In this document: one piece after another, positions 10,898 through 31,256 of the stretch
Layout of the letters: every line of letters starts with the position of its first letter
Numbering within the stretch: the first letter of the stretch is position 1
Source: a virus
IMG/VR virus record: IMGVR_UViG_3300045988_070743
Coordinates: 1-38,508 of that record
Strand: one strand, 5' to 3'
DNA length: 38,508 nt
The notes under the pieces: model-generated
What the model was told of the DNA's origin: nothing
What the model saw: the letters and a program-made list of their open reading frames with translations, nothing else
Database searches by the model: none
Made by a program: the position numbers and the translations under genes

Positions 10898-12640
10898 TTA
10901 TTTAAATAGTTTCGAAACCTTTTTTAATATTTTTAAAATCAAAGCGATAATACGATTGATTCCATTTACATTAATTTTATCATTTGAATCGCTTGTATCG
11001 TTTGAATCATCTTTTTTAGGATTGCTCAACTCATCTAAATATTGTGATACTAATAATTTAAAATCATCCCAACCTTCATCAAGAATCTTGTGTGGGCAAT
11101 ATTTATAATTACCACTTGTCATCTTGTAATCTTGGTGCTTTTTTAAGCAATCAATACTCAATCCATATTTATACAATAGCTCAGATGCAAGTCTTGCTCC
11201 ATTCTCTCTAGCTTTTTTCCATTCATCTTGTGAATCGTTATCATTATCCTTGGCGATTTCGATTTGGATACCTGTTCTATTACCAAATCCATATGCTCCA
11301 TCACCTGTTGCAAATGCATTACGATTCAATGGTAATGATTCAATGATGTCTTTATCATCCACCGAGAAATGCCAAGATTTATATTCCTTCGAATTGTGCA
11401 ATGCATTATTTAAAGCTCTAGCAGTTCCATTTGGTGTTGCCGAGTTATGGATGATAATCGCTTGAGGTTTATTCATTAAATAAGGGCATTTGTAAGGATA
11501 CAATCTCTTATTAATTAAATCAACGATAATACCGTCATGTTCAAGAACTTCATCAGTTTTATCCTTTCCTTCGTAATCTCCTTCATTAACCGATGTAAAT
11601 CCATTTGTATTTACAATGGGTTTCGAAGGGGTTGTGGGTGTTTCGGTAGGTGTTGTCGTTGGCTTTGAGTTGTTCGGAGCAGTAAATGTTGCCCACATTT
11701 GCGTTCTATCCTCTGTTGCAGATACGGCAACGAATACTTTTTTATCTCCGTCTTTGCCTACTACATATCTGTGCCCATTTCCTACATACTTCCAATAATA
11801 GCGAATTGAATCACCAGTGTTGTATGTTTTGCAAACATCACCTTTTGGCGAATCGTAACGTGCTCTCACACCGTCTACCGTGAATGTAGCGATACCATCT
11901 TCTTGTGTTAGGGTAATTGATTCGGTAGGTTTTTGTTCTTCAATAGAAGTAAATGTTGCCCACGGTTCTGTACCTTGCTCATTTCCATTCACTGCCACGA
12001 AATAACGATAGCTTGCACCATCTGCTTGATGTTCAACCCATGAAATATATCTGTGCCCATTTCCTACATATTTTTGCGTGTATTCTAGCTTTGCCCCTTT
12101 TTTCAATGTTTCTGCTACGATTCCATTTGGTGTATCTCTTCTTTTCTGAATGTCATACATTAATGTAGCATAAGCGTGTTCATCTATTAATTTAGATTCT
12201 ATATAATCGCTATTTTGAGTTTGATTTACTAAACATTTAGGTCTAAAGCCTGTATCATATGTGGCACTGTATGGAAATTTACATAAATTAAATGCTCCTC
12301 CTGCACCACCTTGATTTTGTCCTAAGAACCAACCATATTTTCCATCAATATCAGAATCAAAAATTGCAATATGCGAATATGGTGTAACTCCTGGCACTAC
12401 TTTGAACACGACAATATCACCGGGTTGATATACAGATACTTCAACACTGTTTTTCAAGATTCCATTTGTCTTTCTATATAGCCAAATGTCTTTAGCGTAT
12501 TTACTGACTGTACAACTAATTCTTGGGTATCCTAGTTTCTCATACCAATACATTGCACCATCCCAACATTGAGAGCCGTAAGCTCCATCAATGTCAATTC
12601 TTTTGCCTAATACAGCGTTTTTAAAACTTTGATAATCTAT
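10898..12640 (-). CDS. Modular peptidoglycan hydrolase (lysin): CHAP, 2x SH3b-like, Thr/Pro linker, amidase_2, amphipathic tail; probable ATA start
   Basis: CHAP motifs DIDGAYGSQCWDG (catalytic Cys) and YSHIAIF...GQNQ. Two SH3b-like repeats (...YVGNGHRY...WATFT). Amidase_2-like IIIHNSATP...WHFSVDD...YKYCPHKIL. The Cys lies upstream of the first ATG (12553). AGGAGG lies 9 nt upstream of ATA 12640-12638. Confidence 0.85.
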   Translation of the reverse strand: MDYQSFKNAVLGKRIDIDGAYGSQCWDGAMYWYEKLGYPRISCTVSKYAKDIWLYRKTNGILKNSVEVSVYQPGDIVVFKVVPGVTPYSHIAIFDSDIDGKYGWFLGQNQGGAGGAFNLCKFPYSATYDTGFRPKCLVNQTQNSDYIESKLIDEHAYATLMYDIQKRRDTPNGIVAETLKKGAKLEYTQKYVGNGHRYISWVEHQADGASYRYFVAVNGNEQGTEPWATFTSIEEQKPTESITLTQEDGIATFTVDGVRARYDSPKGDVCKTYNTGDSIRYYWKYVGNGHRYVVGKDGDKKVFVAVSATEDRTQMWATFTAPNNSKPTTTPTETPTTPSKPIVNTNGFTSVNEGDYEGKDKTDEVLEHDGIIVDLINKRLYPYKCPYLMNKPQAIIIHNSATPNGTARALNNALHNSKEYKSWHFSVDDKDIIESLPLNRNAFATGDGAYGFGNRTGIQIEIAKDNDNDSQDEWKKARENGARLASELLYKYGLSIDCLKKHQDYKMTSGNYKYCPHKILDEGWDDFKLLVSQYLDELSNPKKDDSNDTSDSNDKINVNGINRIIALILKILKKVSKLFK

Positions 12641-12665
12641 TAAAAAAAACCTCCTTTATATGCCA

Positions 12666-12674
12666 ATTATAGCA
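12666..12674 (-). promoter_or_regulatory. Extended -10 promoter TGCTATAAT directly upstream of the lysin SD
   Basis: Minus-sense TGCTATAAT, read as the reverse complement of attatagca. It is the same 9-mer as at 5267-5275. Confidence 0.4.
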
Positions 12675-12692
12675 CATAAAAGAGGTTTTTTA

Positions 12693-13130
12693 TCACTGGT
12701 ATACAGAGAACATTTCTCTTAATTTATCTCTTACCATTTCTCTTTCTTCTTGAAAGTCGCTAGACGTTTTCATTTCTTCTAAGATTCCATACATAGCACT
12801 TAAAAAGGCTTCTAACTCACGAATTGAATTTTGTTTATCTAGTTCATTGTTGCCTTTTCGATATTCTTTTTTAGCTTCTATGTATTTCCTAAAATGAGAA
12901 TTCATTAATGCGATATTATCATCAATTTCCGTTCCTTCAATATTTGTATCATTTGTTTTTAATGCGTTTATAGCAGTTCTTCCATCACTCATAGCTAGTA
13001 TTGTATCAATGTCTTTGATATTGTCTAAAGCTTGGCTCATGACTTTAAAATCTAAATCATTGTATCCTCTTTCTAATCCTCTCATCGCTTCCGTTAAGAG
13101 GTCTAGATTTCTTTTTCTAACCTCTTGCAT
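12693..13130 (-). CDS. Hypothetical helical protein (145 aa)
   Basis: ORF with TAGGTG upstream of the ATG. Last gene of the holin-lysin cargo block. Confidence 0.6.
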   Translation of the reverse strand: MQEVRKRNLDLLTEAMRGLERGYNDLDFKVMSQALDNIKDIDTILAMSDGRTAINALKTNDTNIEGTEIDDNIALMNSHFRKYIEAKKEYRKGNNELDKQNSIRELEAFLSAMYGILEEMKTSSDFQEEREMVRDKLREMFSVYQ

Positions 13131-13137
13131 GATACAC

Positions 13138-13557
13138 CTACGCTAACTTCTTAATGATGATATTTGCATTTTGAACAGATAAATCTAAGCCACTATTATT
13201 ACCTAGCGTAATTGTGTAAGACGCACCACAAGGTACTTGAATCAATGTAACTCCACTTACATTTCCATATGCGCTTGCAGTAGCTACATTATATAGAGAT
13301 TCTGTTCCTCCTACTGCTTCTCCATTCTGTTCTAATTCTAAAGAAGCAACTCCTACCGTTGTGCTTGTGATGTCTGCCGTATATTCTACTTCATAGATTC
13401 CTTGTTTCGTTAATGTAAACAGCCCACTTCCTACATCATGAGCGAGCCAACCTTTACATGCACATTGGCATGATTTTGTTCTTACTCTGTTTGTTGGGAA
13501 TAATACATTTTGTCCATTTGCTACTGTCTGAATTGACGTTGCTATACTATTAATCAT
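13138..13557 (-). CDS. BclA C-terminal domain-like (C1q/TNF-like jelly-roll) protein without a collagen stalk
   Basis: GLFTLTKQGIYEVEYTADIT, LELEQNGEAVGGTES and the C-terminal QNANIIIKKLA parallel the B. anthracis BclA C-terminal domain (...FYKITVIANTA, LTIQVNGVPVPGTGS, ...ASIIIEKVA) as I recall it. Confidence 0.6.
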   Translation of the reverse strand: MINSIATSIQTVANGQNVLFPTNRVRTKSCQCACKGWLAHDVGSGLFTLTKQGIYEVEYTADITSTTVGVASLELEQNGEAVGGTESLYNVATASAYGNVSGVTLIQVPCGASYTITLGNNSGLDLSVQNANIIIKKLA

Positions 13558-13573
13558 TTTCTTTTCCTCCTAT

Positions 13574-13604
13574 ATAAAATAAATGGGTAGCCTTTCGACT
13601 ACCC
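13574..13604 (-). terminator. Intrinsic terminator (GNRA-loop hairpin)
   Basis: Minus-sense GGGUAGUC-GAAA-GGCUACCC followed by AUUUAUUUUAU. Confidence 0.6.
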
Positions 13605-13639
13605 TATAATCCAAAGGCTATTGCCTAATCTCTTTCGAG

Positions 13640-14251
13640 CTAGATTTGGTTACATCCACAACCTGTCATATTATACGCATAATAAGGTGAGCAAGTAAGA
13701 TATGCAGGTTTTGGCGTTGGTTGCAATGTATTGATAATATTTGCAGATTGTGCCTGTTGGCTCAATTGGAAGTTTGCAGTTAATAAATCTCTGTCTCTAT
13801 CTGCTAATTTATCACGCAATTCTTGCATTGTGTTAGCATTGATTAATGCTCTTGTTGCTTCGCCTTCTGAGTGAATTGCAGTGGTAATATCACACGTGTT
13901 TTTAAAACTTTGTGCGTTTACACCATCAATCGCTCTTTGTGTTGCACAACAACATTCTTGGTTTTGTTGACCTAGATTCTGCAAACCTAATTGTGTCGTG
14001 TATCGGCTTTCTAGAATGTCTCTTGAATTTTGGAAACCTTGGCTAGATACATTTTGATTTGTATTGAACAAATCACGCTTAATAAATTCTTGATTCATTA
14101 ATTCGTCATTCTGTAGGTTGCCATTGTTACCCCAATTTCCACCAAATAGTAAAAATAACAGGATAATCCAAATCCAATATCCTCCACCAAATTCATTGTT
14201 GTTTCTGTCTGCTAAATCGTACATTGGTTGAATACCATTCATGCTTTCCAT
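13640..14251 (-). CDS. Membrane protein with N/Q-rich middle and Cys-rich segments (203 aa)
   Basis: GGAGG lies 8 nt upstream of the ATG. TM segment YWIWIILLFLLFGG. Cys clusters ECCCATQ and TGCGCNQI at the C-terminus. Confidence 0.6.
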   Translation of the reverse strand: MESMNGIQPMYDLADRNNNEFGGGYWIWIILLFLLFGGNWGNNGNLQNDELMNQEFIKRDLFNTNQNVSSQGFQNSRDILESRYTTQLGLQNLGQQNQECCCATQRAIDGVNAQSFKNTCDITTAIHSEGEATRALINANTMQELRDKLADRDRDLLTANFQLSQQAQSANIINTLQPTPKPAYLTCSPYYAYNMTGCGCNQI

Positions 14252-14275
14252 TTATATTTCCTCCTTTCAACGCAA

Positions 14276-14485
14276 TTAGCGTTTTAGCCAATATTGACTA
14301 GCCACATTTTCAAATTGTTGTTTTTGTTGTGGCGTTAAATTCCCCATCATATTATTCAATAATACTTTGGGATTCTGTCCACTTTGCATTAATTGTTGTA
14401 CTTGATTAAATGCTTGTGGATTTCTTTGTTGTAACATACCCAACAACATTTGTTGAGGGTTCATCATATTCATTAAAGGATTCAC
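14276..14485 (-). CDS. Met/Gln/Asn-rich small protein (69 aa)
   Basis: The GTG start overlaps the upstream TGA (GTGA), with GGAG 8 nt upstream. Low-complexity MNPLMNMMNPQQMLLGMLQQ... Confidence 0.55.
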   Translation of the reverse strand: MNPLMNMMNPQQMLLGMLQQRNPQAFNQVQQLMQSGQNPKVLLNNMMGNLTPQQKQQFENVASQYWLKR

Positions 14486-14916
14486 GCTTTAAGCTCCTTC
14501 CTAGGCGTTTCTTTATCTACCTTTGTATTTATATTACTTCCGTTTGTTAGACCTAATATCATAGCTTCTAGCTTGTCTAAGCGTTGTTCTATGTTGTCTT
14601 TCTTCGGCTCTGTTTCTTCTTGGAATCTGTATTTCTTGAAACTGCCGTCTAAAGACTTCATGTAGAATACTGAATCATTTCTATCTAGCATAATACTAGG
14701 CAGACCGTTCACCATCATATTCCTTGCTTCTTGTTCATTATTAACCCACTTACCATTAAAATCATTCAATGCCATGTTAGGTGTGATTTGGTTATTGATG
14801 TTAATAGGTGGAATATTCGCCATCTGTTGAATCGTCTGTAACTGTGATTCAATCATTTGCTTTTGATTCATTAAATTGTTAATTCTGTCATTAATTGGAT
14901 TATACATTTCGCTCAC
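14482..14916 (-). CDS. N/Q-rich hypothetical protein (144 aa)
   Basis: GTG 14916, or ATG 14907, follows GGAG/GAGGTG. It is preceded by a terminator and a TTGACA box. Confidence 0.6.
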   Translation of the reverse strand: MSEMYNPINDRINNLMNQKQMIESQLQTIQQMANIPPININNQITPNMALNDFNGKWVNNEQEARNMMVNGLPSIMLDRNDSVFYMKSLDGSFKKYRFQEETEPKKDNIEQRLDKLEAMILGLTNGSNINTKVDKETPRKELKA

Positions 14917-14983
14917 CTCTTTACACTCCTAATTATATTCATAGGCAGTTTCAGTTTGTTTTCACATTAATGTCAAGTAAATG

Positions 14984-15011
14984 CCAAAAAAAAGAGGTTT
15001 TTCAACCTCTT
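14984..15011 (-). terminator. Intrinsic terminator after the sigma-region-4 gene
   Basis: Minus-sense AAGAGGUU-GAAA-AACCUCUU followed by U-run. It overlaps the stop codon. Confidence 0.65.
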
Positions 15012-15276
15012 AATTCTTGTCTAGATACGTTTCTTTTTCACTGCTTTTTCTTGGTGGTAAAACTGCGCTATACTTTTCTACTTCATCATACTTGTTCTTT
15101 ATTCTTTTGATGATTCTATTCACACTAGAAACACTCATATTTAATCTGTCAGCTTGTTCTCTGACTGTCCATCCGTATATTCTTGTTCTTAGAATCATTT
15201 CTTCATCTTTAGTTAATAAAGCTAGATTAATAAATTCTTCAAGAATAATCTTATTCCAAGGTACTTGATTCGTCAT
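15010..15276 (-). CDS. Small sigma-70 region-4-like HTH protein (88 aa)
   Basis: LTKDEEMILRTRIYGWTVREQADRLNMSVSSVNRIIKRIKNKY matches the region-4 HTH pattern. The start overlaps the holin 3' end by 26 nt. Confidence 0.55.
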   Translation of the reverse strand: MTNQVPWNKIILEEFINLALLTKDEEMILRTRIYGWTVREQADRLNMSVSSVNRIIKRIKNKYDEVEKYSAVLPPRKSSEKETYLDKN

Positions 15277-15766
15277 TGTCTTGTTCTTCGTTAATAAGTT
15301 TATCTGCTACTTCTAATCCTTTAGTTAATACTTTTGGTACATTGTAACCACATTGTAATAAATTCTCCATAACGCTACGAGATTCATTAATACATAGCGA
15401 AGCTAACACAAACCAACCTAGCAATGTAGACACATGGAAATCAATCCCTAGAATTTCTCCTACTTCTACTAAAAATGCACTGAATGTGAACGCAACCACA
15501 ATCATAATCCAATAGCCTAGCTTTTTTAAAACACCGGTCCAACCTTTGTTGCTATTGATTTTATGAGCAATAGCCGACTTCATGCACCCTGTAATATAAT
15601 CCACTACATTCATAAATAAGAAGAACGCAAATAAATACCAATGCTCGCCTAATACGTATGTTAATACGGCTACGGCAACACCACACATTGCATTAATCTT
15701 ATCTAGAAAAAACATACTTCTTGCTATTTGCTTAAATCCTCCATTTTTATTTTCTATTAAATTCAC
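15251..15766 (-). CDS. Holin (Phage_holin_4_1 / TcdE-like family)
   Basis: Multi-TM protein with VVDYITGCMKSAI and INESRSVMENL family motifs. The start is uncertain: GTG 15766 abuts the SD, and ATA 15757, ATA 15727 and ATG 15715 are all in frame. Confidence 0.75.
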   Translation of the reverse strand: MNLIENKNGGFKQIARSMFFLDKINAMCGVAVAVLTYVLGEHWYLFAFFLFMNVVDYITGCMKSAIAHKINSNKGWTGVLKKLGYWIMIVVAFTFSAFLVEVGEILGIDFHVSTLLGWFVLASLCINESRSVMENLLQCGYNVPKVLTKGLEVADKLINEEQDNDESSTLE

Positions 15767-15769
15767 TCC

Positions 15770-16784: not shown

Positions 16785-17657
16785 CTATATACCTAAATAC
16801 CTTTCGTTGTAGTAAACAGTGCAAGCTAGGTTCGTATCTCCATTATCTGCCGTATATCCTATGATATTCTCACCTAAATTAATAGTCATATCATTGAATG
16901 ATGAAGTTCTATCAACTTTGCCAATACAATTCACGCCATTCTTCTTTATTGAAATAGGTTCAGAAACTAAATCGATTTCTAATACATCACCATTGTGTAA
17001 CGTATCTAATACACGAATATATTTATCTTTATTGAATAGTTTCGGATTTGTCACATCTCCAAATGCTTCAATGACGGCCCTGCAATATGTTTCTGTATCA
17101 CCTTGATTATCAATATAAATTTCTCTAGCGAATGTGAATGTTCCAAAGTTTACGCCTGTTTCCGGTATTTCGAAATTAAATGCTAAACCACCGCCGATTT
17201 CTGCAATATTCTTTGCAAAATCATCAAATGAAAGTAATAAAGGTTGCGTGCATAGAATCGTAAAATTAAGCTCTAAATCTTTGTAGATGTTAACAGTAGG
17301 CAAGCTATACGCATATAAACGACCTCTGCAATACTTCTTTTCTCCCATGTACTCAACTATCACATCAAATACATGAGAATATTGGAAGAAGCGCCGTAGC
17401 TTCTCCCTTTCTTCTCTTTTTTCTTCTAGTGAACCTTTAAAGATAGCTTTCACGCTTCTTTCTTTCGTTGGAATACGTGAACCGATTAATCTAGCACCAT
17501 TTCCAAATGCGTTGTCTTGCGTAGTGTATGAAGGTGCTACATAATCAAATCCATCTAAGCCATCATTTGAAGGAATCCTCCATCTTTTTTGGTTGTCAAT
17601 TTCAAATTCTGTGCCATCATCCCTACGGACAATAACTCTTACTTTATTGATATCTAT
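16785..17657 (-). CDS. Distal tail protein (Dit); probable ATA start
   Basis: The frame is open for 68 codons upstream of the first canonical start (GTG 17453), with no ATG, GTG or TTG. ATA 17657-17655 overlaps the TMP stop (ATAG), 7 nt after GGAGGTG. Confidence 0.7.
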   Translation of the reverse strand: MDINKVRVIVRRDDGTEFEIDNQKRWRIPSNDGLDGFDYVAPSYTTQDNAFGNGARLIGSRIPTKERSVKAIFKGSLEEKREEREKLRRFFQYSHVFDVIVEYMGEKKYCRGRLYAYSLPTVNIYKDLELNFTILCTQPLLLSFDDFAKNIAEIGGGLAFNFEIPETGVNFGTFTFAREIYIDNQGDTETYCRAVIEAFGDVTNPKLFNKDKYIRVLDTLHNGDVLEIDLVSEPISIKKNGVNCIGKVDRTSSFNDMTINLGENIIGYTADNGDTNLACTVYYNERYLGI

Positions 17658-20233
17658 TGAACTACACCTCCATATCCATATCTTGCTTGCATACGTAACA
17701 TTCTAGCGATTTCATCCGGACTTTGAGCTTTATTGTAGAAGTTGATAGTCTGTCCATTGTTATTCGTTGTAACACTAGGCATAATTTGGACCATATCTTT
17801 TGCTACGGCACGAATCCACGCTTTATTCTTTTCTAAAGGAACGACTGCTTCTGCTCCATTACCTTCTAACAATCCAATTTGACCGCGTTTCAATACACCA
17901 CCAAGCTCTAGTTTTGGAATCTTTCCAATGCTAACTCCGGGAATCTTATTGATGATACTGATTGCACCATTAATTCCACCGATAACACCATTTACCATTC
18001 CTTTTACACTTCCAACTAATGATTGCACTGCTCCTTCAATTCCATTGAATACACCACCTACAAAGCCTTTTAAACCGCTCCATGCATTCTGTATTCCATG
18101 TAGAACATTTGAAATCTTATTTCCTACTTTATCCATCACGATTTTTACTTTTGACCACACATCGTCAAATACATTTGAAATAGTATCTTTTACACCTGCG
18201 AAGCTAGAATCAATTATATCAATCACATTTTGTACAATATTTCCAATATTATCGAATACACCTTTGATAACATTCCATATGCTTTCAAATATGCTTGAAA
18301 TTGACTGGAATAAACCACTTGCAAATTGAATGATTGCAGATACTACCTCACTTATCTTGCCCCAAATATTCGTTGCAACAGTTACGATTAAAGACCAAAT
18401 ATTAGATATGATAGATGCAATGATTTGAACAATCGGCATGATGATAGACAATATTGTAGAAATTGCACTTCCAACATATGAAATCACCATACTAATGAAC
18501 GAAATGATTCCACTTACAACACTTCCAACTATCGAAAGAATAGATGTGATTACAGGAATTAATCCAACTATGTTTGAAATCACCATCTTTATAATCGCTA
18601 GGATAGGTGGACCAACCACGCTCAGAATCTTTTGTGCTTGGTTTACGATATTTTGAATAGCTTCAATAATCTTAGCTAATATATCTTTTGCAATAGGTTC
18701 AAGTGCAATCTTCATTTTGTCGATTGCGTCTTTTACCTTATCAAAAGCAGGAGCTAACACTTCAGAAACTTGGCTTGTGATTTTTGTGATTCCACTTGTA
18801 TCAATCTTACTTAATACATTTGAAATTACATCACCAACTTTAGCAAATCCTTGTTGAATACCTTGTATCGCTACTGTAATTAGTCCAATAATACCGGAAA
18901 GAATAGGAGTAATCGCTTCGCCTATTGGAGTAAATGAGTTTAAGAATGTACGCCCTAAGCCACTTAAAGCGTTCTTTAAACCACCATTTGCAATATCTTT
19001 AACCTTTTCCATTGCTCCTTGTACATCTTTATATTTATTCCCTACTGTCGTTAAGGACTGAATGAATCCGGCGTTGAAATCTTCTCCCATTGTACCGAAA
19101 GCCGTTGCAGATTTATTCAATTTTTCTTGTTCATTTGTAGTCTTTGAAATATCTTCTACAATCGCATTCACAACATCTTTTTGAGTTGCTCTTCCTTCTT
19201 GCCATGCCTTAAATACATCTTGTGTTTTGGTATCAAAACTATCTAAAGCTCCTTCAATAGTTCCATCAACTAACCTTGTGGTAACTTCGTTAATTGCGTC
19301 ATTTACTTTGTCAAGGTTATAAGCTCCACCGTCTAAACCATTCTGCATTAATTGGAAGTATTCTTCTGCCGAATATCCTGCTTGCTTGAATTTACCGGAG
19401 TATTCTGAAATGTTGTCGCCTAACTCATCTGATTTGTTTAAACCATTCTGAGCACCTGTAGCCATAAGGTCGAAAGCTTCTTGAGAAGTAATTCCGAACT
19501 GCTTCATTAATTGTTGAGCACCTCTAAGAGTTTCGTTCTCGTCCATGCCGAATGTGTCTCTTAATGTCAATAAATCCTCAGTTACATTCTTTAAATCAAC
19601 ATCGCTTATGCCTTGCATTTGTTGCTTGACACGTGCCATCATATCAGCAACATCTGAAACATCTGAGCCGAAATTATTAGACCAAACATCACGAGCAATG
19701 TTTTTAAATTTATTCATTTCATTGCTTGAAGCACCTGTTTGAGCTTGAAATTTAGCCATAGCGTCATCTAGCTCCACGGCTTGGTTAACACCTGTCTTAA
19801 TAGCTAGTGCCATACCTCCGATAGCTCCTGCTACGGCAGTAACGCCTACAACACCTCCTACGCCTAATCCTGTTAATGTTTCAGTGATTGCAGTAGCTTC
19901 CGGACTAATGTTCTGAATCTTTCCTAATAGTCCATCAAATCCACCTTGAATTGACTCTAATGCACTGTTTCCTACTTGCTTAAATACATCAAATTTAGAA
20001 CCTGTTTCTTGTGTTTCTGTTTGTGTATTCTTTTGCTCTTCGTTTAAATCTTTAAGTTTTTCTTTAATCTTCGGTGGTGCTTTTGAACCATCAGAACCTA
20101 GCTTATCAATCGCTTTTGAAGTTTCTTTAATAGCATTTGTAGCTCCACTTGTGACTACATGAACGGATTTCATTCCATTCTCTAGACCACTTGTATCAAT
20201 CTTTGTATCAAACTTTAATGTTCCGTCTGATAT
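17654..20233 (-). CDS. Tape measure protein; probable ATA start
   Basis: 859 aa with a Gly/Ala/Ile-rich repetitive TM-like core. The conserved-looking N-terminus GTLKFDTKIDTSGLENG lies upstream of the first ATG (20173). ATA 20233-20231 directly follows an in-frame TGA and GGAGGTGG. Confidence 0.8.
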   Translation of the reverse strand: MSDGTLKFDTKIDTSGLENGMKSVHVVTSGATNAIKETSKAIDKLGSDGSKAPPKIKEKLKDLNEEQKNTQTETQETGSKFDVFKQVGNSALESIQGGFDGLLGKIQNISPEATAITETLTGLGVGGVVGVTAVAGAIGGMALAIKTGVNQAVELDDAMAKFQAQTGASSNEMNKFKNIARDVWSNNFGSDVSDVADMMARVKQQMQGISDVDLKNVTEDLLTLRDTFGMDENETLRGAQQLMKQFGITSQEAFDLMATGAQNGLNKSDELGDNISEYSGKFKQAGYSAEEYFQLMQNGLDGGAYNLDKVNDAINEVTTRLVDGTIEGALDSFDTKTQDVFKAWQEGRATQKDVVNAIVEDISKTTNEQEKLNKSATAFGTMGEDFNAGFIQSLTTVGNKYKDVQGAMEKVKDIANGGLKNALSGLGRTFLNSFTPIGEAITPILSGIIGLITVAIQGIQQGFAKVGDVISNVLSKIDTSGITKITSQVSEVLAPAFDKVKDAIDKMKIALEPIAKDILAKIIEAIQNIVNQAQKILSVVGPPILAIIKMVISNIVGLIPVITSILSIVGSVVSGIISFISMVISYVGSAISTILSIIMPIVQIIASIISNIWSLIVTVATNIWGKISEVVSAIIQFASGLFQSISSIFESIWNVIKGVFDNIGNIVQNVIDIIDSSFAGVKDTISNVFDDVWSKVKIVMDKVGNKISNVLHGIQNAWSGLKGFVGGVFNGIEGAVQSLVGSVKGMVNGVIGGINGAISIINKIPGVSIGKIPKLELGGVLKRGQIGLLEGNGAEAVVPLEKNKAWIRAVAKDMVQIMPSVTTNNNGQTINFYNKAQSPDEIARMLRMQARYGYGGVVQ

Positions 20234-21192: not shown

Positions 21193-21699
21193 TTATACTT
21201 CTGATGTACCTTCTGTGAATGTCACTGTTCCATCTGCTACCTTTGCAGTACCAACACGAATATCGCTTGCAAAGTTAATATTGAAGTTGATTTTTGAATC
21301 GACACCGCTTAACGTGTCAAAGATTAATTTAGCGTCAACTTCCCATGCTCTATATCCTTTTGTTTTGTCTCCGTCAAACATGAACGCAATTAAAGCTTTT
21401 GTATTTACTTCTTCGTTGTTTGGCACGGATTTCATCATTTTTTCGTAAATATATTCGAAATCATCTTCGCCTTTAATCATTGTTAAATCTTGCGAAATTT
21501 GAGGTGAATAATTCTTTAATGATTCTGTTGGGTTCTTATCTGCGATAAAGTCATATGTTTCTGTTTCACTGTTAAACGAAATATCTAAAGTTGTAGACTT
21601 TTTAATTCGCTTATATCCTGTTCCCATTTCCAAGAACAAACCAATCATATACTTCTTGACTGTCTGTCCTACGCTTACTTCAGTTCCTTGAGTTGCTAT
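21193..21699 (-). CDS. Major tail (tube) protein; probable ATA start
   Basis: Position and size fit. The frame is open 17 codons upstream of ATG 21648. ATA 21699-21697 overlaps the upstream TAA (TAATA), 8 nt after GGAG. Confidence 0.6.
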   Translation of the reverse strand: MATQGTEVSVGQTVKKYMIGLFLEMGTGYKRIKKSTTLDISFNSETETYDFIADKNPTESLKNYSPQISQDLTMIKGEDDFEYIYEKMMKSVPNNEEVNTKALIAFMFDGDKTKGYRAWEVDAKLIFDTLSGVDSKINFNINFASDIRVGTAKVADGTVTFTEGTSEV

Positions 21700-22118
21700 T
21701 AATTAAGCTCCTTTCTGTATTTAATTTGAATAGTCAACGCATATACTGCTTGACTATCCTCATTTGTGTATAGATATAAACCACTTGAAACGGAAACATC
21801 ATCACAATATTTGTTTCCGTCTAGTTGTGGCAATTCTCCGTTTAAATTCTTTTCATCAATCCAATTTTCTAATTCTTCTAGAAAAACATTGTTGTCTTGC
21901 CTTTCTGATTCAATTTGTGTATTCCTACGTGCTAGAAACGTGTAGTATTCAGTACGCATTTGAGAGCCGTCAATGTATGTATCTACAATTGCGTTAGGTT
22001 CTTTATACAACGCATAAGAGATAGCTTGTTGCGCTAAAACATCCGTTTCAATACGTTCATCTATCTGTATATTTCCATAGCCATAAAGCCACTGAATCAA
22101 TGCTTTTGATACTGTCAT
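21699..22118 (-). CDS. Tail terminator / head-tail joining protein
   Basis: 139 aa directly upstream of the tube gene, with an ATGA overlap. Confidence 0.5.
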   Translation of the reverse strand: MTVSKALIQWLYGYGNIQIDERIETDVLAQQAISYALYKEPNAIVDTYIDGSQMRTEYYTFLARRNTQIESERQDNNVFLEELENWIDEKNLNGELPQLDGNKYCDDVSVSSGLYLYTNEDSQAVYALTIQIKYRKELN

Positions 22119-22471
22119 TCTCCGTCTCCTATCATCTGTTGTGCTTTCTTTAAGATTGTTTCTGCTCCACCATTTCGCATAGCTTTTTCAAACCAATGGT
22201 CTGTTTTTCCACCAACGAAATGAGCATTCTCTTTGTTGTAATACCACCGTCTAGCATATGGAGCACTTGGCCCACCTTGCTTTACTAATCCACTACCGAT
22301 TTGTGTTAATCGTGTAGCCGAGTTAATCAATGCTCCTGTGTCTCTAGGCGTATAGGGGGACATAAGCCTAATGACTTCAGAATCAATCATTTGTTGAACT
22401 CGTCCACGTTCTTCAAGTCCTCTTGATTGTTTAATTTGGGGAATTGATTCAACATCAAGTTTGACTTTCAT
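22115..22471 (-). CDS. HK97 gp10-family neck protein
   Basis: PRDTGALINS...YARRWYY pattern. The best start is ATG 22471. The track ORF extends to 22549, overlapping the upstream gene. Confidence 0.55.
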   Translation of the reverse strand: MKVKLDVESIPQIKQSRGLEERGRVQQMIDSEVIRLMSPYTPRDTGALINSATRLTQIGSGLVKQGGPSAPYARRWYYNKENAHFVGGKTDHWFEKAMRNGGAETILKKAQQMIGDGE

Positions 22472-22473
22472 TC

Positions 22474-22893
22474 CTATTGACCAACAACCTCCCAATGTTT
22501 CAACATATCGACATTCGTACAATCTGTTACGCTTTGAATCGTTGTCCATTTGTATTTCTTTTTAGCTTCATTTATTGCTTTAATACTAGATAAATCTTCT
22601 TCAACTTCTCCAAAGAATACAAAATCTGTCTTATCCGTATTTAACGTGAAATGCTTTTGCTTCTCATCATTTGAAAGTTTCGCATATGCGTAAGGTTCAA
22701 CATATCCCTCACGATATAGAATGGTAATATTTGTGGATGTTGCTATGCTCAGAATATTACCATTTGCGGTTCTAACGGTTGATTGTCTCCACATACATTT
22801 ATCAAGAATAGAAGCTTGAAACCTATCTTCTCTTGTCAATGTGTCATAGTAGTGATTAACAAGTGTAATTGAATCCTCAAAGAATCCTATCAT
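22474..22893 (-). CDS. Head closure / head-tail adaptor protein
   Basis: ATGA-coupled start at 22893. Assignment rests on its position in the connector cluster. Confidence 0.45.
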   Translation of the reverse strand: MIGFFEDSITLVNHYYDTLTREDRFQASILDKCMWRQSTVRTANGNILSIATSTNITILYREGYVEPYAYAKLSNDEKQKHFTLNTDKTDFVFFGEVEEDLSSIKAINEAKKKYKWTTIQSVTDCTNVDMLKHWEVVGQ

Positions 22894-23258: not shown

Positions 23259-23408
23259 CTATTTTTTCTTTTTATCTTGAGGTTTAGCTTCCTCTTTTTC
23301 TTCTGTGGGTTCTTCTTTTTCTTCTTCATTAACTGTAGGCTCGTTAACTTTTGGTTGTTCAACCTCTTTATTGATGGAAGGATAGCCCCATCCGATTTCC
23401 GTTGCCAT
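23259..23408 (-). CDS. Small acidic Glu/Lys/Pro-rich protein (49 aa), absent from the ORF track
   Basis: TAATG overlap with the capsid stop. Sequence is MATEIGWGYPSINKEVEQPKVNEPTVNEEEKEEPTEEKEEAKPQDKKKK. Confidence 0.45.
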   Translation of the reverse strand: MATEIGWGYPSINKEVEQPKVNEPTVNEEEKEEPTEEKEEAKPQDKKKK

Positions 23409-24277
23409 TACTTAGCACTAGCAGATAAGTAAATACCTGCTACCTTATTTGCGTATACATCAACGATTCCATACTTACGATATTTCAATACATCTGAATC
23501 TGATTCAATGTTATTGCTTGCCGGAATTACATTTGAAACGGTGTGTTTATCCCATTTCATAACGGCAGGCTTGTGAACAATTAAGAAGTTAATTGCGTGT
23601 CCATCTTCTGCCTTTTCGTATCCGCCTTCAAGCTCTGTATCTTTTCCACTCAACAATTTAATTTTTGTATAGAAACGTGTTGAAGGTACAGGAACAACTT
23701 TTGCGAATCCTTGTAAAGCTTCACGAGATTTGTAAGTGTCCAACGCCTTAACGCTATTTAATAATGTTGGTGTTGAATACAAGATACGTTGTTCGCTAGG
23801 AACTTCATCCTCATCCATTTTAGTGATAGCCGTTAATAATGCGCTCAAGAACTCTTCTGCACCTGTATAATCTTCTGCAACTGTTGTGATTCCTGTTGTG
23901 CCGGCAATTTTGGCGAATGTGTAAGCGTCTGCTTCCGGTGCTACCTTTGTACGCATTAATTCCGCTCCTGCCATACCGAACGCAATATTCATTGATTCTG
24001 CGTTATCCTGTGTATCAACTGAGATTTTAGTTCCTCGGTCATAGTCGAATGTAGCAGTTTTCCATTCTAATTTAACTGAGTTACCTGTATAACCACTGTT
24101 TCTATCGTAGTTTCCTAAACCCTTGACTGAAATTTGTGGATAGATGATTTCTTTTGCGTTCGCTCCTGCTCTAACCATTGTAGCGTCTGCGTTTAAATCA
24201 CCTGTAACTGAAGCTAACTTATATACCTCATCCAAATTTGAGACATACGTTTTAGCTAATGCAATTTGATTTGGTAT
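23408..24277 (-). CDS. Major capsid protein; probable ATA start
   Basis: 289 aa directly after the scaffold gene. AAGGAGG lies 9 nt upstream of ATA 24277-24275, with an in-frame TAA two codons upstream. The first canonical start (TTG 24235) has no SD. Confidence 0.7.
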   Translation of the reverse strand: MPNQIALAKTYVSNLDEVYKLASVTGDLNADATMVRAGANAKEIIYPQISVKGLGNYDRNSGYTGNSVKLEWKTATFDYDRGTKISVDTQDNAESMNIAFGMAGAELMRTKVAPEADAYTFAKIAGTTGITTVAEDYTGAEEFLSALLTAITKMDEDEVPSEQRILYSTPTLLNSVKALDTYKSREALQGFAKVVPVPSTRFYTKIKLLSGKDTELEGGYEKAEDGHAINFLIVHKPAVMKWDKHTVSNVIPASNNIESDSDVLKYRKYGIVDVYANKVAGIYLSASAK

Positions 24278-26153: not shown

Positions 26154-26169
26154 TTATATGCCCTCCTAC

Positions 26170-26193: not shown

Positions 26194-26209
26194 AAAACGC
26201 TTTTAAAGC

Positions 26210-26329: not shown

Positions 26330-26330
26330 G

Positions 26331-26672
26331 TTACTTCACCCCATTCACTTGAGCTTTTAATTGAGCAATCTGTAACATTAATTGTGCGTTAATCTTCTGT
26401 TGCTCAGTTGGTACTGTTTTTGGCTCTTCAATCGTTGGCTTTTCTGCTTCTGCAACCTCAACTACTTTACCTTCTACATATTTGTAATTATATCTACCAT
26501 ATTTATCAAACAATCCTTTTTCTAAATACTGTGATTGAGCGTGTACGAATTTATCACCTTCTCCTTCATCAATATTTGTCATGGCTTGCATTTCTTCGTT
26601 TGATAGAAAGATTTCAGAATTAATTGATGTAACTTGCTTATCTTCATCTAATTTGACATATACTTTATACAT
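26331..26672 (-). CDS. XkdW-like tail-fibre-associated protein
   Basis: MYKVYVKLDEDKQVTSINS...IDEGEGDKFVHAQSQY...YNYKY, paired with XkdX as in PBSX-like fibre cassettes. The start is the second ATG (26672). Confidence 0.4.
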   Translation of the reverse strand: MYKVYVKLDEDKQVTSINSEIFLSNEEMQAMTNIDEGEGDKFVHAQSQYLEKGLFDKYGRYNYKYVEGKVVEVAEAEKPTIEEPKTVPTEQQKINAQLMLQIAQLKAQVNGVK

Positions 26673-26687
26673 TCTTATCATTCCTTT

Positions 26688-27584
26688 CTACGCATAAATT
26701 TCTGCGTCTAATTCAATGTAACTGTTTTCATCAAAGACGACAGTCATATTTTGTTGAGATACACCTGAAGGAGCCACGAGTAACGTGATTTCTGAATATT
26801 TGGTTAGTGTGATAGGTTGCAAATCACTGAATTTATACTTTACATATCCACCGTAATAATAAACCCAAAAGCTTCCTACACCCTTAACAGTCGGCCTTGT
26901 TCGCATGTTTAATACGGTTTCACATCCGACATACATTTGTGTTGTAAAATAGCCATTTAGTGATGTATTTACAACATTGTAATACATCATACATCTTTGT
27001 AGTTCGTTTGCGTAATTTGGTGCTACGTAAGTGGTAGCTTTACTGCCTTTCTCCAATTTAATCCATTCAATCGTAATTGATGCACCTTGCTTTAATTCTA
27101 TACTTGCCTCCTTTAAATAAGATAAAGTTACGGTATTTAAGCCTTTTACAATCTTCTTTCCATTTGCATGATTGTATAAATACGCATTACCTGTTACTGC
27201 CTTAATATTGCACGATAATGTGCACGTATCATTGATTGCGTGTGCTAAGATTTGTTTAAACCATGAACTTGTATCGGTAGTAGCTAATGATGTGATTGTG
27301 GCCGTACCATCAATATTGTATACTACTTGAGCATTAATACTAATCCATCTATCTAGTGTATACGTTGGCTTTGTAGTGTTGTTTGAATATGTTCCACGTC
27401 CTCTTTGGTCAACTCTGAAATTTGAGTTAAGCAATAAATTTGGATTACTGAATCTTTCTGCCATGTAATCCATTAATTGCGACAACGTACCTTTTTTTAA
27501 TCCTGCTCCGTTATGAACAGGCAATAAGCTTGTATCTGTAAAGCTAGGTAATGCGTCTAATTCTGTCACTTGTTTTCCTGGCAT
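26688..27584 (-). CDS. Receptor-binding / tail fibre-like protein
   Basis: NLLLNSNFRVDQRG...YTLDRW motif typical of Firmicute phage fibre proteins. ATG 27584 lies 6 nt after GGAGG. Confidence 0.5.
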   Translation of the reverse strand: MPGKQVTELDALPSFTDTSLLPVHNGAGLKKGTLSQLMDYMAERFSNPNLLLNSNFRVDQRGRGTYSNNTTKPTYTLDRWISINAQVVYNIDGTATITSLATTDTSSWFKQILAHAINDTCTLSCNIKAVTGNAYLYNHANGKKIVKGLNTVTLSYLKEASIELKQGASITIEWIKLEKGSKATTYVAPNYANELQRCMMYYNVVNTSLNGYFTTQMYVGCETVLNMRTRPTVKGVGSFWVYYYGGYVKYKFSDLQPITLTKYSEITLLVAPSGVSQQNMTVVFDENSYIELDAEIYA

Positions 27585-27585
27585 G

Positions 27586-27831
27586 TTATTCCTCCTTGAC
27601 TTTATATGTCCAATCCGTGCCGACTTCTCCACTTGCTACCTCGTAAGACCAATCGGCTAGGATAGTATTTCCTTTTTCATCCACTAAATCTTGAGCACTT
27701 GTTGCGTTCAAATTCGTGGTAAAGTGATTATTCATCACCATTTGATTCAATGCGTTATGTGAAGTAGTTACAGACTTTATTTTCGAGACAAGCCACTGAA
27801 TAGAAGCTTTGTCTTTAAATACGAAAAACAT
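27586..27831 (-). CDS. 81-aa protein consisting mainly of the NNHFTT...DWTYKVK domain
   Basis: The C-terminal ~50 aa are paralogous to the C-terminus of 29047..29856. Confidence 0.55.
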   Translation of the reverse strand: MFFVFKDKASIQWLVSKIKSVTTSHNALNQMVMNNHFTTNLNATSAQDLVDEKGNTILADWSYEVASGEVGTDWTYKVKEE

Positions 27832-27834
27832 ATG

Positions 27835-28443
27835 CTAACCCCACATTGTGTTTAAATCGTTTGTTGTAATCGCAGTTAATTCTGATTTCTTAACATATGC
27901 CGATAAATCAATGTCTGTATTACCAATCTTTTCAAATGTTTTGCTTTCTGATAACCAAATATATTCATTATAAATATCTTGTGTTCCGTGTGAATGTGCT
28001 ACCAAATAGATAACACCATTTGAACCTGTAGCAGGTAAGCTCGTTACCTTTTCATATCTAATAGATGTAATATTACCTACTGCCGAATTAATCAACGATT
28101 GTACTTGTGATTGCGTTTGATACCCTTTAGCCGTGATAATTGACTCAACGCTCGTCGCCGACTGATATCCACTGTCATTTGTTAATTGTGATGTCTTTGT
28201 AGGCACTGTAACATCCACGGCTTTTGAGCTTGGCGTTAATTTCGTACCATTTACCTTTACAGACTCAATCACATTCACTTGAGCACCACTTGCGATACCA
28301 CTTAATTTGTTTTTTTCTGCATTAGTATAGTCATTTGTCGATAAGCCTTTACCACTTACAACATTAACTTTCCCACCTAATTCAGATTTAATTTTACTGA
28401 TTAAGAGCGTCAATCCACTCTTATCTAAATATTCAATAGCTAT
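27835..28443 (-). CDS. Tail fibre repeat protein (GKGLSTNDYT...EKNKL motif); probable ATA start
   Basis: GGAGG lies 7 nt upstream of ATA 28443-28441. The N-terminal AIEYLDKSGLTLLISKIK lies upstream of the SD-less TTG 28413. Confidence 0.6.
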   Translation of the reverse strand: MAIEYLDKSGLTLLISKIKSELGGKVNVVSGKGLSTNDYTNAEKNKLSGIASGAQVNVIESVKVNGTKLTPSSKAVDVTVPTKTSQLTNDSGYQSATSVESIITAKGYQTQSQVQSLINSAVGNITSIRYEKVTSLPATGSNGVIYLVAHSHGTQDIYNEYIWLSESKTFEKIGNTDIDLSAYVKKSELTAITTNDLNTMWG

Positions 28444-28454
28444 TCTTTTTCCTC

Positions 28455-28754
28455 CTATAGACTATTCCATAATTCATCTAGTTCGGTTGTTGATACAGAT
28501 GTCACAGAACCTTCTGCCATAGCTCCAATATCTTCCGGAGTATATACCGGTCTTGTTTCTGCTTTAGCCCACGTTGGAACTGTTGGGTCTATTTCTTCAA
28601 CCTCTCCAATGATTTCATTACCATTTAATTTAGGTTTGTTCTTTAGCTTGTTGTAATCACTTGTACCTTCAACAAACTTCTCATCTGAGATTTCAATTTG
28701 AAGCTTGTCTGATTCATCTTGTATATTCATTTGAATATCTTGCATTAGAATCAT
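28455..28754 (-). CDS. Fibre-associated protein (99 aa; DYNKLKNKPKLNGNEIIG motif)
   Basis: ATGA-coupled ATG after AAGGAAGTG. Confidence 0.5.
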   Translation of the reverse strand: MILMQDIQMNIQDESDKLQIEISDEKFVEGTSDYNKLKNKPKLNGNEIIGEVEEIDPTVPTWAKAETRPVYTPEDIGAMAEGSVTSVSTTELDELWNSL

Positions 28755-29050
28755 GTAATCACTTCCTTATTCAATACTCTATATACCTTTGTTGTCTTGA
28801 CAGGAGAAGCAATAGCAACTCCTCCTTTTGTAATCATTCTTAATTGAATATTACAAGTACCCTCTTTGAAATTGAGCGTTTCTTCTTGACTTAACAACAC
28901 TGAAATAACATTTCCTTCAATGTCTAAATCACTTGATTCTTTTTTTAAGATATATCCGTTCTGTTCAAATACCACATAGATATTCTGCATTTCATTTAAA
29001 TCAATATCGTTTATTGTGATTTGAATTGTTGGCGTAGTTCCTTGTCTCAT
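28751..29050 (-). CDS. Fibre-associated protein (99 aa)
   Basis: ATGA-coupled ATG 29050. The track ORF extends to TTG 29071. Confidence 0.5.
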   Translation of the reverse strand: MRQGTTPTIQITINDIDLNEMQNIYVVFEQNGYILKKESSDLDIEGNVISVLLSQEETLNFKEGTCNIQLRMITKGGVAIASPVKTTKVYRVLNKEVIT

Positions 29051-29856
29051 GATTTCACCTTGTAAGTCCAATCTTTGCCTACTTCACCCGACTCAACTTC
29101 ATACGCCCAATCGGCTAGCATTTCATGACCGTTCTCATCTACCAGTGTTCCATCTTCTGTTAATAGAATCGTAGTGAAATGGTTATTCATAAGCATTTGT
29201 TCTACATTTGCAATTCGGTTCATTAACTTACCTGCGGTATTTGAATCCAACGTATCTTTTACGCTTGCGAACCATTCATTGAACTCTGTTCTATTTGCAT
29301 TCATTTCAGATTCATTCTGAGCTTTAATTTCCTTGAATAACTCAGTAACTTGAGTGAACAAATCCAATGATTGTACGCTCTTAATTGCGCTTGTAACTGC
29401 TCCGCAACGTGTAGAATCTAATCTTGTATCAGTAATATCTGAGCCTTTAACTTCACTTGAATTACCTGTGACCGTGACTGTAGCTAGTACTAAATCATAA
29501 ATAGAATCACTTCTTGTAATTCCACTGTTAATATCACTTGCAACTAATGTGATGTTTCTGTGTGCGTCATTATCATTCAGTCTAAGAATAATATTGTAGC
29601 TTTTGGTTGCGTTATTCTTTTCTAGTGTGATGGTTTCGTCATCCCTTTGCCAATAGAATGCTCCATTGATATTCGCTCGTCCTGCTTTAACTGTTAATGT
29701 TAAGCCTTGAGCTTTCTCGACTCTTAAATGGTCTGAACCGGAATCATCTACGAACACGCCATTTGTAAAGTAGCTTGAGAATAATCTTCTGAAAGCGTCA
29801 TATAATACTAATCTATCGCCATTTCTTGAGACGAATGGAAAATATGTTGTTGCTAT
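29047..29856 (-). CDS. Fibre/structural protein (269 aa); probable ATA start
   Basis: The frame is open 33 codons upstream of GTG 29757 (ATTYFPFVSRNGDRLVLYDAFRRLFSSYFTNGV), with an in-frame TGA 3 codons upstream. ATA 29856-29854 overlaps the portal TAG. Confidence 0.6.
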   Translation of the reverse strand: MATTYFPFVSRNGDRLVLYDAFRRLFSSYFTNGVFVDDSGSDHLRVEKAQGLTLTVKAGRANINGAFYWQRDDETITLEKNNATKSYNIILRLNDNDAHRNITLVASDINSGITRSDSIYDLVLATVTVTGNSSEVKGSDITDTRLDSTRCGAVTSAIKSVQSLDLFTQVTELFKEIKAQNESEMNANRTEFNEWFASVKDTLDSNTAGKLMNRIANVEQMLMNNHFTTILLTEDGTLVDENGHEMLADWAYEVESGEVGKDWTYKVKS

Positions 29857-31256
29857 TCTTCTTCATCCTCCTCTCCATCATCTTGAATTTCTTCATTTAA
29901 TAACTCAGTTGCTTCTTCTTCAGTAAAGCCGTATTGCTTCATAAAGTACATAATTTTCAATCTTGGAATATCAAATGTTAATGCGTCATTCCTTAACGCT
30001 TGTGCCGTGCTTTGCTTATCCTCGATATATGTATCGTCATAATCAATCGCAATGTCTAATGAATTGATATTAAGCTTTCTGCCTTGTGTCAATTCATAGA
30101 AGTATGCTATTGCTTGAATGATATCTTGAATATATGCAGTAGACTCTTTTCGTTGTGCATTCACTTCCTTCATTGCGTCTTGATTCTCACCGATATATTC
30201 GGTAGCAGTGACAATTCTTCCACTTTCAAAGGTGTATTTCTTTGTGCCAAATCCAAACATCATAGATAAGATACTTAATGCGGTTTCTAGTGATTGCACA
30301 ACTTCTTGTGTTCTAACTGTTGGATTGTATTCTTGCCATAACGCTTTTTCTTCCGGTAGTTTGTCTCTACCTAATTGAACGAAGATATTCTTTAATTGTG
30401 GATTCTGTTTAACCTTTCCATTCTTGTCTTTCTGCATTAACGCTTCATTTACAAGAACGATTTTATCTGATTTCAATAAATCTCGATTCCACATTGTCAT
30501 TGTCAAATCAATTGTTTTTAAAGGAGCGATTGCGCTCCAAATCTTTGGTAAGCCGTACCCTTGCATTTGTAAGTTGTTGACTTTTGCGTTTCTCATAATC
30601 GCAAACGGCTTGACCACATCTAATTGAACAATTTGAGCACGGTCTTTTATTTCTTCGCCTGTATCTTTGAAGTAATGTGTTTCTGCAATATATCTTTCGT
30701 CTTGTCCTTTTAAGAACATGACCATCACATATACTTTTTTTAATTTCTCATAATTTACTCCAACGAAAGCAACTTCCACAATTTCATCATTAATAACAGT
30801 TAGTGGAAGGATATTCATGGAATCACAATAATTAATTCTAATTTCTCCCCCACTGAATGTACCATCTTCATAAATCTCGGCATTTGATACCGTCACATAA
30901 GCTCCTACCGTACCATTTGCAGACATTTGCTCAACTTGTTTCCTATACATTACATCAAATCTATTCTTTGTTAGAATGTCTGAAATAATGTCATTTGTAG
31001 CACTGTCCTCTGTTGCGTTTATATCCAAGATTTCAATTAAGTTTGCATCATCTTCACACAAACGCTTTGCAAAGTCTGTCTTATCCAATGTATATTGCTC
31101 ATTATTTAATGTGTATGCCGTATGAAATTCTGTTTCGGTATTTGTGTACCACTTGTTGCACAATTCAATAATTTCAATTGCGTTTGTGTCTACATAATAC
31201 CCTCTATCGTTTAGGTAATTCTGAAACCACGGTCTACGTGTGTTAGATGTTTCTAT
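29853..31256 (-). CDS. Portal protein (SPP1 gp6-like); probable ATA start
   Basis: 467 aa directly after terL. TAAGGAGG lies 6 nt upstream of ATA 31256-31254. The first canonical start (TTG 31163) is 31 codons downstream with no SD. Confidence 0.75.
   Translation of the reverse strand: METSNTRRPWFQNYLNDRGYYVDTNAIEIIELCNKWYTNTETEFHTAYTLNNEQYTLDKTDFAKRLCEDDANLIEILDINATEDSATNDIISDILTKNRFDVMYRKQVEQMSANGTVGAYVTVSNAEIYEDGTFSGGEIRINYCDSMNILPLTVINDEIVEVAFVGVNYEKLKKVYVMVMFLKGQDERYIAETHYFKDTGEEIKDRAQIVQLDVVKPFAIMRNAKVNNLQMQGYGLPKIWSAIAPLKTIDLTMTMWNRDLLKSDKIVLVNEALMQKDKNGKVKQNPQLKNIFVQLGRDKLPEEKALWQEYNPTVRTQEVVQSLETALSILSMMFGFGTKKYTFESGRIVTATEYIGENQDAMKEVNAQRKESTAYIQDIIQAIAYFYELTQGRKLNINSLDIAIDYDDTYIEDKQSTAQALRNDALTFDIPRLKIMYFMKQYGFTEEEATELLNEEIQDDGEEDEEE

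Follow-up and report, generated by a model that had tools for sequence, protein, structure and literature searches.

In a temperate siphovirus genome of 38,508 nucleotides (IMG/VR record IMGVR_UViG_3300045988_070743, positions 1 to 38,508; this whole stretch is referred to below as the window), ten late genes, among them those for the portal, major capsid, tail tube, tape measure, holin and endolysin, carry an ATA codon at a functional distance from a Shine-Dalgarno (SD) sequence where a canonical start codon would stand, and the same genome encodes a tRNA with the anticodon UAU, which is cognate to AUA. We consider it quite likely that this phage-encoded tRNA is an initiator tRNA with a changed anticodon, and that it gives the late genes a private start codon. 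It also appears likely, on a wider view, that in some temperate phages of gut Firmicutes the initiator anticodon has changed from CAU to UAU or CCU and the late starts have moved to AUA or AGG, creating a phage-private start codon that would be the initiation counterpart of stop-codon recoding. At the level of sequence we show ATA and AGG starts, tRNAs with conserved features, and a match between anticodon and start codon across lineages.

ATA codons at the 5' ends of late genes

The window is of low GC content (31-36%), holds nearly all of its genes on the minus strand, and has no DNA match among deposited phages in either the near or the distant similarity mode. A first-pass annotation had proposed that eight of its late genes lack any canonical start and begin instead at ATA. 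All eight codons are present on the minus strand, at 31256 (portal), 29856, 28443, 24277 (major capsid), 21699 (tail tube), 20233 (tape measure), 17657 (distal tail protein, Dit) and 12640 (endolysin), and the distances given from each ATA to the first in-frame ATG, GTG or TTG (31, 33, 10, 14, 17, 20, 68 and 29 codons, in the same gene order) are exactly right. Every ATA lies 6-11 nt past an anti-SD match of 6-10 nt, the eight downstream canonical codons have no SD, and the ATAG, TAATA and TGA-ATA junctions are as described. Two particulars had to be narrowed: an in-frame stop lies no more than six codons above the ATA in every gene except Dit, where the nearest upstream stop is 15 codons away, and the SDs, strong at all sites, are not uniformly of the GGAGG type, that of the tube gene being AGAAAGGAG. 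The number of genes was itself an undercount, as the eight hold and two more, together with a probable eleventh, can be added. From base composition, we estimate that an in-frame ATA would fall within the two to three codons at SD spacing in less than about 10% of genes; an SD-spaced ATA was seen in every late gene without a canonical start close to its 5' end, a pattern far in excess of chance.

Gene callers and RefSeq place these starts downstream; the public portal calls include a 436-residue cluster with 1406 members, among them WP_337527002.1 from Holdemanella sp., and further short entries of 365 residues labeled 'MAG TPA portal'. Such calls would be correct if the ATA codons were artefacts or were not starts at all, whether through sequencing error, pseudogenes, use of the downstream TTG, GTG or ATG codons, or reassignment of ATA to Met. 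Identical ATA codons, however, recur in dozens of independent assemblies. The portal ATA is present in all 38 IMG/VR relatives recovered (95-99% portal identity, several metagenomes), the other sites are kept in 19-34 relatives each, and the codons are also found in ENA and Logan assemblies. Because each site is thus represented in 19-38 independent IMG/VR contigs and again in ENA and Logan, sequencing artefact can be set aside. The sole substitution at the eight codons among the relatives is ATG, which occurs in 5/19 relatives at 28443 and in 1/34 at 21699.

Comparison with homologous phages, which the first-pass annotation had put forward as a check, places the start at the same codon. In L091, a related phage with ordinary starts, an ATG aligns codon-for-codon with the ATA in the portal, capsid, tube and tape measure genes; the tape measure N-terminus, for example, is M-ADGTLLFETKLD in L091 and I-SDGTLKFDTKID in the window. 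From the ATA down to the first canonical codon, variable sites are distributed 47:26:143 by codon position (p = 3e-24), and this codon-periodic variation indicates that the stretch evolves as coding sequence. Matches to PHROG and Pfam profiles begin at residues 2-6, and portal homologues keep the N-terminal 30 residues that a TTG start would cut off. For the endolysin, it had been argued that the catalytic cysteine of the CHAP domain is encoded upstream of the first ATG, and this is the case: the domain is recognized by Pfam at 29.3 bits (cut-off 26), and alignment of DGSFGWQCFD in solved CHAP domains with DGAYGSQCWD in the window places the cysteine at residue 25, ahead of the ATG at codon 30. 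Internal ATA codons align with Ile, Val and Leu and not with Met, and a sense reassignment of ATA to Met was rejected on these grounds.

The core of the earlier proposal, that these genes lack a canonical start and use an SD-spaced ATA in its place, is therefore upheld by five lines of evidence. An SD at functional spacing, coding conservation from the ATA onward and an orthologous ATG at the same position were all found, and by these sequence measures ATA is the true start of ten genes; that the codons are artefacts, or are not starts, we regard as extremely improbable. An out-of-frame ATG/TTG located 4 bases before the tape measure ATA was considered as a frameshift signal and dropped, as nothing comparable was seen at the other sites.

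The ten genes, all on the minus strand, span much of the late module. The portal gene (29853-31256; phrog_533) starts at ATA 31256 with the SD AAGGAGGT at a spacing of 6, and its stop overlaps, as ATAG, the ATA of the next gene (29047-29856, ATA 29856). That gene and the one at 27835-28443 (ATA 28443) had both been named fiber; profile matches instead assign the former to PHROG head-protein families (phrog_1220) and the latter, a structural-module protein, to a family of unknown function (phrog_24103). The other names stand: major capsid protein (23408-24277, ATA 24277; phrog_422), tail tube protein (21193-21699, ATA 21699 in a TAATA overlap), tape measure (17654-20233, ATA 20233 directly past an in-frame TGA; PF10145), Dit (16785-17657, ATA 17657, overlapping the tape measure stop as ATAG; PF22768) and endolysin (10898-12640, ATA 12640; CHAP and Amidase_2). 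The two additions are a minor head protein (22115-22477; phrog_556) and the holin (15251-15757; PF05105, phrog_199). The minor head protein starts at ATA 22477 in an ATAG overlap, and this codon is invariant in 34 relatives while an ATG two codons on varies to ATC, ATA and ATT. The holin starts at ATA 15757 behind the SD AAGGAG, with ATG in 3/28 relatives. A small gene at 36540-36734 (minus strand) is the probable eleventh; its candidate ATA at 36734 has an in-frame ATG two codons downstream, and the SD-to-ATA spacing of 7-8 is kept in three differing upstream contexts. Two further candidates were not retained: the ATA at 32902 is GTA in relatives, and that at 15303 was left unsupported. The integrase has an ordinary ATG start at 9410. 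ATA starts thus account for about 10/31 late-module genes and for at most 1 of ~32 other phage genes.

A phage tRNA cognate to AUA

AUA was rightly flagged in the first-pass annotation as a poor initiator in bacteria; what was overlooked there is a cognate, initiator-like tRNA(UAU) encoded by the same genome. The gene (36118-36190, minus strand) is found 4.9 kb upstream of the portal gene, between a terminator-like hairpin (36214-36230; TGCTCACATTGTGAGCA, then a T run on the minus strand) and the packaging module, and is followed on its 3' side by a genomically encoded CCA (36115-36117). ARAGORN reported no tRNA in the window, because the T arm is irregular in the window lineage, with a bulge and an odd loop (UGCAAUU); the gene was recovered with the Rfam tRNA model (48 bits) and scores 94.8 bits with our own covariance model. 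Its anticodon loop reads CU-UAU-UA.

Elongator tRNAs have a paired 1:72, needed for binding EF-Tu, a pyrimidine11:purine24 pair and a purine at position 37 (t6A), and G2:C71, C3:G70 and A73 are reportedly initiator determinants, from the work of RajBhandary and Blanquet. The window tRNA has an A1xA72 mismatch, G2:C71, C3:G70 and A73 at its acceptor end and A11:U24 in its D stem. In three respects it does not look like an elongator tRNA-Ile(UAU): positions 1 and 72 form no pair, 11:24 is A:U, and U occupies position 37. Formylation depends primarily on the lack of pairing at 1:72, which also confers resistance to peptidyl-tRNA hydrolase, with A11:U24 in a secondary role (PMC4611024).

We found the tRNA(UAU) in 32 IMG/VR contigs of the window phage group, and also in L073-L075, a lineage whose portal is ~60% identical, and in the Amedibacillus prophage L090; in both of the latter the portal, capsid, tube and tape measure genes again start with ATA. 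A portal-alignment scan of genome contigs led to distant Lachnospiraceae prophages, and in these the covariance model identified homologous tRNAs with two other anticodons. CCU tRNAs are located in L077 (13680-13750), L078 (13610-13680), L081 (15334-15404), L082 (9319-9389) and L087 (2694-2764), and also in L134-L141, while CAU tRNAs are located in L079 (14016-14087), L084 (9047-9118) and L085 (6850-6922). The CAU members are initiator-like with a normal anticodon and do not have the three anticodon-stem G:C pairs; their D arm (UGGAGCAG..AGCUC) and T arm (GCAGGUUCAAAUCCUGC), as in L079, presumably match those of Firmicute tRNAfMet closely. One idea is that a phage-borne ordinary CAU initiator serves to evade tRNA-targeting nucleases.

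Compensatory changes support the cloverleaf at 15 of its 20 pairs across the 21 distinct homologous tRNAs. Positions 1 and 72 never form a standard pair in any of the 21 (the combinations are AxA, GxA, CxA, UxU and AxG), and pairs 2-7 are always formed. The pair 2:71 is GC in 20/21 and GU in 1/21, 3:70 is CG in all 21, and A73 is invariant. A11:U24 is present in the window tRNA and in all UAU and CAU members (11/21). By comparison, Val-CAC and Ala-CGC tRNAs encoded on the same contigs have a Watson-Crick pair at 1:72.

Variants were also seen within the family. UAU tRNAs with a different anticodon stem occur in L024 (804-879) and L031 (363-438), and the stem in L024 (UCGGU/GCCGA) is that of the CCU group, which suggests exchange or convergence between the UAU and CCU types. 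In L134 (1104-1176) and L139 (775-847), the CCU tRNA is adjoined by an odd second tRNA with the anticodon CGC, an AU-rich acceptor stem and a paired 1:72.

Several neighboring genes were recognizable. Just upstream of the tRNA, and separated from it by the hairpin, is a gene (36217-36543, minus strand) with a weak match to Sigma70 region 4; its product may be a late-gene activator, which would put the tRNA at the early/late boundary. Pfam matches near the tRNA are to DUF6275, ParB_N, a TET-associated glycosyltransferase and a radical SAM protein, and in this search of the neighboring genes no tRNA-modifying or charging enzyme was found. The region between the tRNA and the terminase (33079-35723, minus strand), with its ParB_N-like gene, TET-associated glycosyltransferase (PF20691) and weak radical-SAM match, looks like a DNA-modification module.

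Start codon and anticodon across lineages

To compare loci, we counted SD-spaced codons that precede the first canonical start by five codons or more. UAU loci (the window, L074 and Amedibacillus L090) have 17 ATA and no AGG, CCU loci have eight AGG and no ATA, and CAU loci have neither. As loci within an anticodon group are related, these counts are descriptive; the independent lineages number about three for UAU, at least four for CCU and three for CAU. Sixteen further AGG cases were found in eight IMG/VR contigs that had been fetched solely by the CCU tRNA pattern; among them are six genes of L140 and, in L136, those for terminase small subunit, portal, minor capsid and major capsid. At the tape measure start, the window, L074 and L090 have ATA, L091 has ATG, and L077 has AGG, its R-ADGSLIFDTKLD corresponding to M-ADGTLLFETKLD and I-ADGTLLFETKLD; an AGG of L077 likewise aligns with the M of homologous portals. 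SD-spaced AGG starts for terS, portal, minor capsid, capsid and tape measure were observed in the CCU-tRNA prophages of Lachnospiraceae (Roseburia and others). By sequence, AGG/CCU is a second start-codon system of the same kind as ATA/UAU. Between lineages whose portals are only 55-60% identical, ATA itself persists at the same five or six orthologous genes, which hints at selection.

These observations bear on whether the tRNA is needed to account for the starts. In the main alternative, the host initiator (CAU) might read AUA through a third-position mismatch, aided by a very strong SD and translational coupling, and the phage tRNA(UAU) would then be just an elongator tRNA-Ile that adds to the decoding of AUA. 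ARAGORN indeed labels the homologues tRNA-Ile(tat), the anticodon stem does not have the three G:C pairs, every ATA start has an SD match of at least 6 nt with several overlapping an upstream stop codon, and ATA is used 1.25-1.7 times more often in the phage than in the host flanks. An ATA-start RusA gene in L091, with no accompanying tRNA in the stretch fetched, points the same way. An elongator, however, needs a paired 1:72 for EF-Tu, and this pair is absent from all 21 tRNAs through five types of mismatch while the neighboring elongator-type tRNAs retain it; A11:U24 and G2:C71/C3:G70 are initiator features. Near-cognate reading also leaves the CCU/AGG system unexplained, as AGG mismatches CAU at the middle position, and it does not predict that starts track the anticodon across lineages. 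Host flank genes and most early phage genes, moreover, do not start with ATA, and AUA is already decoded by the host. We therefore consider this explanation unlikely.

The host, taken from the portal cluster entry WP_337527002.1, is a Holdemanella sp., and its flanking sequence was obtained through a small gene near attR; a look-up with the integrase gave only circular-form contigs without flank. In this sample of 12 host genes, all start with ATG and none with ATA. Per 1000 codons, ATA occurs 9.4 times in the host flank genes, against 11.8 times in late phage genes and 16.2 times in other phage genes, a modest excess in the phage; as ATA is used in the host flank genes, the host decodes AUA itself. 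These data speak to a second alternative, in which initiation fidelity is relaxed host-wide in Erysipelotrichaceae, relatives of Mollicutes, such that ATA and ATG are interchangeable and the phage pattern reflects AT-biased drift. It is true that phages of both Holdemanella and Amedibacillus, two genera of Erysipelotrichaceae, have ATA starts, and that ATA and ATG swap among close relatives. Relaxed fidelity would nevertheless have to be reconciled with 12 ATG-started host flank genes and none with ATA, with the difference between late genes (10/31) and other phage genes (at most 1 of ~32), and with the retention of ATA at five or six orthologous genes despite portal identities of 55-60%, and it gives no account of the AGG starts in Lachnospiraceae phages or of the matching tRNAs. 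We judge it very unlikely.

In the non-coding gap upstream of the integrase (~9410-9664, minus strand) there is a stretch that resembles a tRNA 3' end (CCTGTTCGATTCTG), which is probably attP, for integration into a host tRNA gene. In integrated copies (L093 and L094, at about 10500-10640), the junction with the host lies just past a 60-residue gene. The Amedibacillus prophage L090 encodes an RtcB RNA ligase in its early region (1235-2419), which could be tied to tRNA repair during infection.

In the phage-encoded initiator model, which we favor as the simplest reading, the phage family would carry its own initiator tRNA, the anticodon would have mutated in some lineages (a single base change leads from CAU to either UAU or CCU), and the late-gene starts would have shifted to the matching codon. 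The tRNA(UAU) is predicted to pair fully with AUA in the ribosomal P site, such that the late genes with a strong SD and ATA (portal, head proteins, capsid, tube, tape measure, Dit, holin and lysin) would be initiated by the phage tRNA and not by host tRNAfMet. The unpaired 1:72, G2:C71, C3:G70 and A11:U24 would make it a substrate for formylation and for IF2, and the same features would keep it off EF-Tu, so that internal AUA codons would still be read as Ile by the host tRNA. In sister phages the same scaffold would, with CCU, serve AGG late starts and, with CAU, ATG. Wobble of U34 with AUG could make ATA and ATG interchangeable for the phage, which fits the observed flips between the two. 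By inference from its sequence, the tRNA would carry Met or Ile, undergo formylation and enter the P site in spite of its weak anticodon stem.

Some of the data sit uneasily with this model. The T arm of the window-lineage tRNA is bulged and has the odd UGCAAUU loop, position 37 is U and not A as in tRNAfMet, and the anticodon itself is UAU and not the CAU of an initiator. Three consecutive anticodon-stem G:C pairs (29:41, 30:40 and 31:39) have been described as conserved in all initiator tRNAs (PMC4611024), and the corresponding pairs here are A29-U41, G30-C40 and U31.G39, G30:C40 being the only one of the three that never varies in the family. Members with CCU carry U11:A24 and not A11:U24. 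Charging is a further consideration, since methionyl-tRNA synthetase recognizes the CAU anticodon (PMC4611024) and the phage tRNAs have UAU or CCU. As for the starts, the RusA-like gene of L091 (836-1234) has an apparent SD-spaced ATA start at 848 (ITFTIHGRLDGLNEY), and no UAU tRNA is present in the 21 kb of L091 examined; in the window, the candidate ATA start at 36734 sits upstream of the tRNA gene.

Why a phage would adopt such a system can be framed in several ways. A private start codon might possibly lock or time the translation of late and lysis genes; it might possibly make the phage independent of the host initiator tRNA where defence, or the phage itself, targets that tRNA; or it might possibly be the product of neutral drift permitted by an extra tRNA. 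If the model is correct, it would provide phages with a new route to gate late and lysis genes or to escape the host initiator tRNA, and the N-termini of the late proteins may not be methionine. There are also consequences for annotation. Standard gene callers ignore ATA and AGG starts, and the portal, capsid, tube, tape measure, Dit, holin and lysin are consequently truncated in public databases; these initiator-like tRNAs are labeled tRNA-Ile or tRNA-Arg.

Comparison with known initiation and recoding systems

To our knowledge, a CAU anticodon in the initiator and starts of the AUG family are regarded as all but universal, and the phage tRNAs would, if the model holds, be the first natural non-CAU initiator tRNAs that we know of: an exception to a textbook rule in which both the initiator anticodon and the start codon have been swapped. 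The phage tRNA resembles bacterial tRNAfMet (CAU) in its unpaired 1:72, G2:C71, C3:G70, A11:U24, A73 and G30:C40, and differs from it in the anticodon (UAU, or CCU in sister phages), in having one of the three stem G:C pairs, in U37 instead of A, and in being encoded by a phage. Near-cognate starts, such as GUG, UUG and the AUU of infC, share with the ATA starts the use of a non-AUG codon with an SD. Those starts, however, rely on tolerance of a mismatch and on control by IF3, whereas here the tRNA supplied is fully cognate, and efficient initiation at AGG through near-cognate reading would not be expected.

In open-access papers and preprints, we found no natural phage system with ATA or AGG starts and no natural non-CAU initiator tRNA, only engineered ones. 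E. coli initiator tRNAs with mutated anticodons initiate at the complementary codon, with CCU/AGG the most robust pair (bioRxiv 10.64898/2026.04.16.719103), so anticodon-shifted initiation is mechanically possible. In amber-initiator phage biocontainment, phage genes are reportedly made dependent on such a tRNA (bioRxiv 10.1101/2024.07.29.605542). These orthogonal initiators are laboratory constructs, whereas the phage system described here appears to be natural, evolved and carried by the phage itself. For synthetic biology, it may offer evolved orthogonal pairs of initiator and start codon, among which CCU/AGG is also the best engineered pair in E. coli (bioRxiv 10.64898/2026.04.16.719103).

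A natural tRNA(CCU) with methionine identity features has been reported from uncultivated Bacilli in which AGG is reassigned to Met (eLife 2021, PMC8629427), and this makes it plausible that a CCU tRNA can be charged by a non-arginyl synthetase. That change, however, is a host-wide reassignment in elongation brought about by a host tRNA and does not involve a phage initiator.

A parallel among phages is the recoding of stop codons by phage-encoded suppressor tRNAs in crAss-like and Lak phages, the recoded codon being concentrated in late or lytic genes. In both cases a phage tRNA would alter the meaning of a codon and may gate late expression, and in both gene callers mis-annotate the affected genes. 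The recoding of stop codons, however, acts in elongation, whereas the system proposed here would alter the start codon and leave the sense meaning of AUA as Ile.

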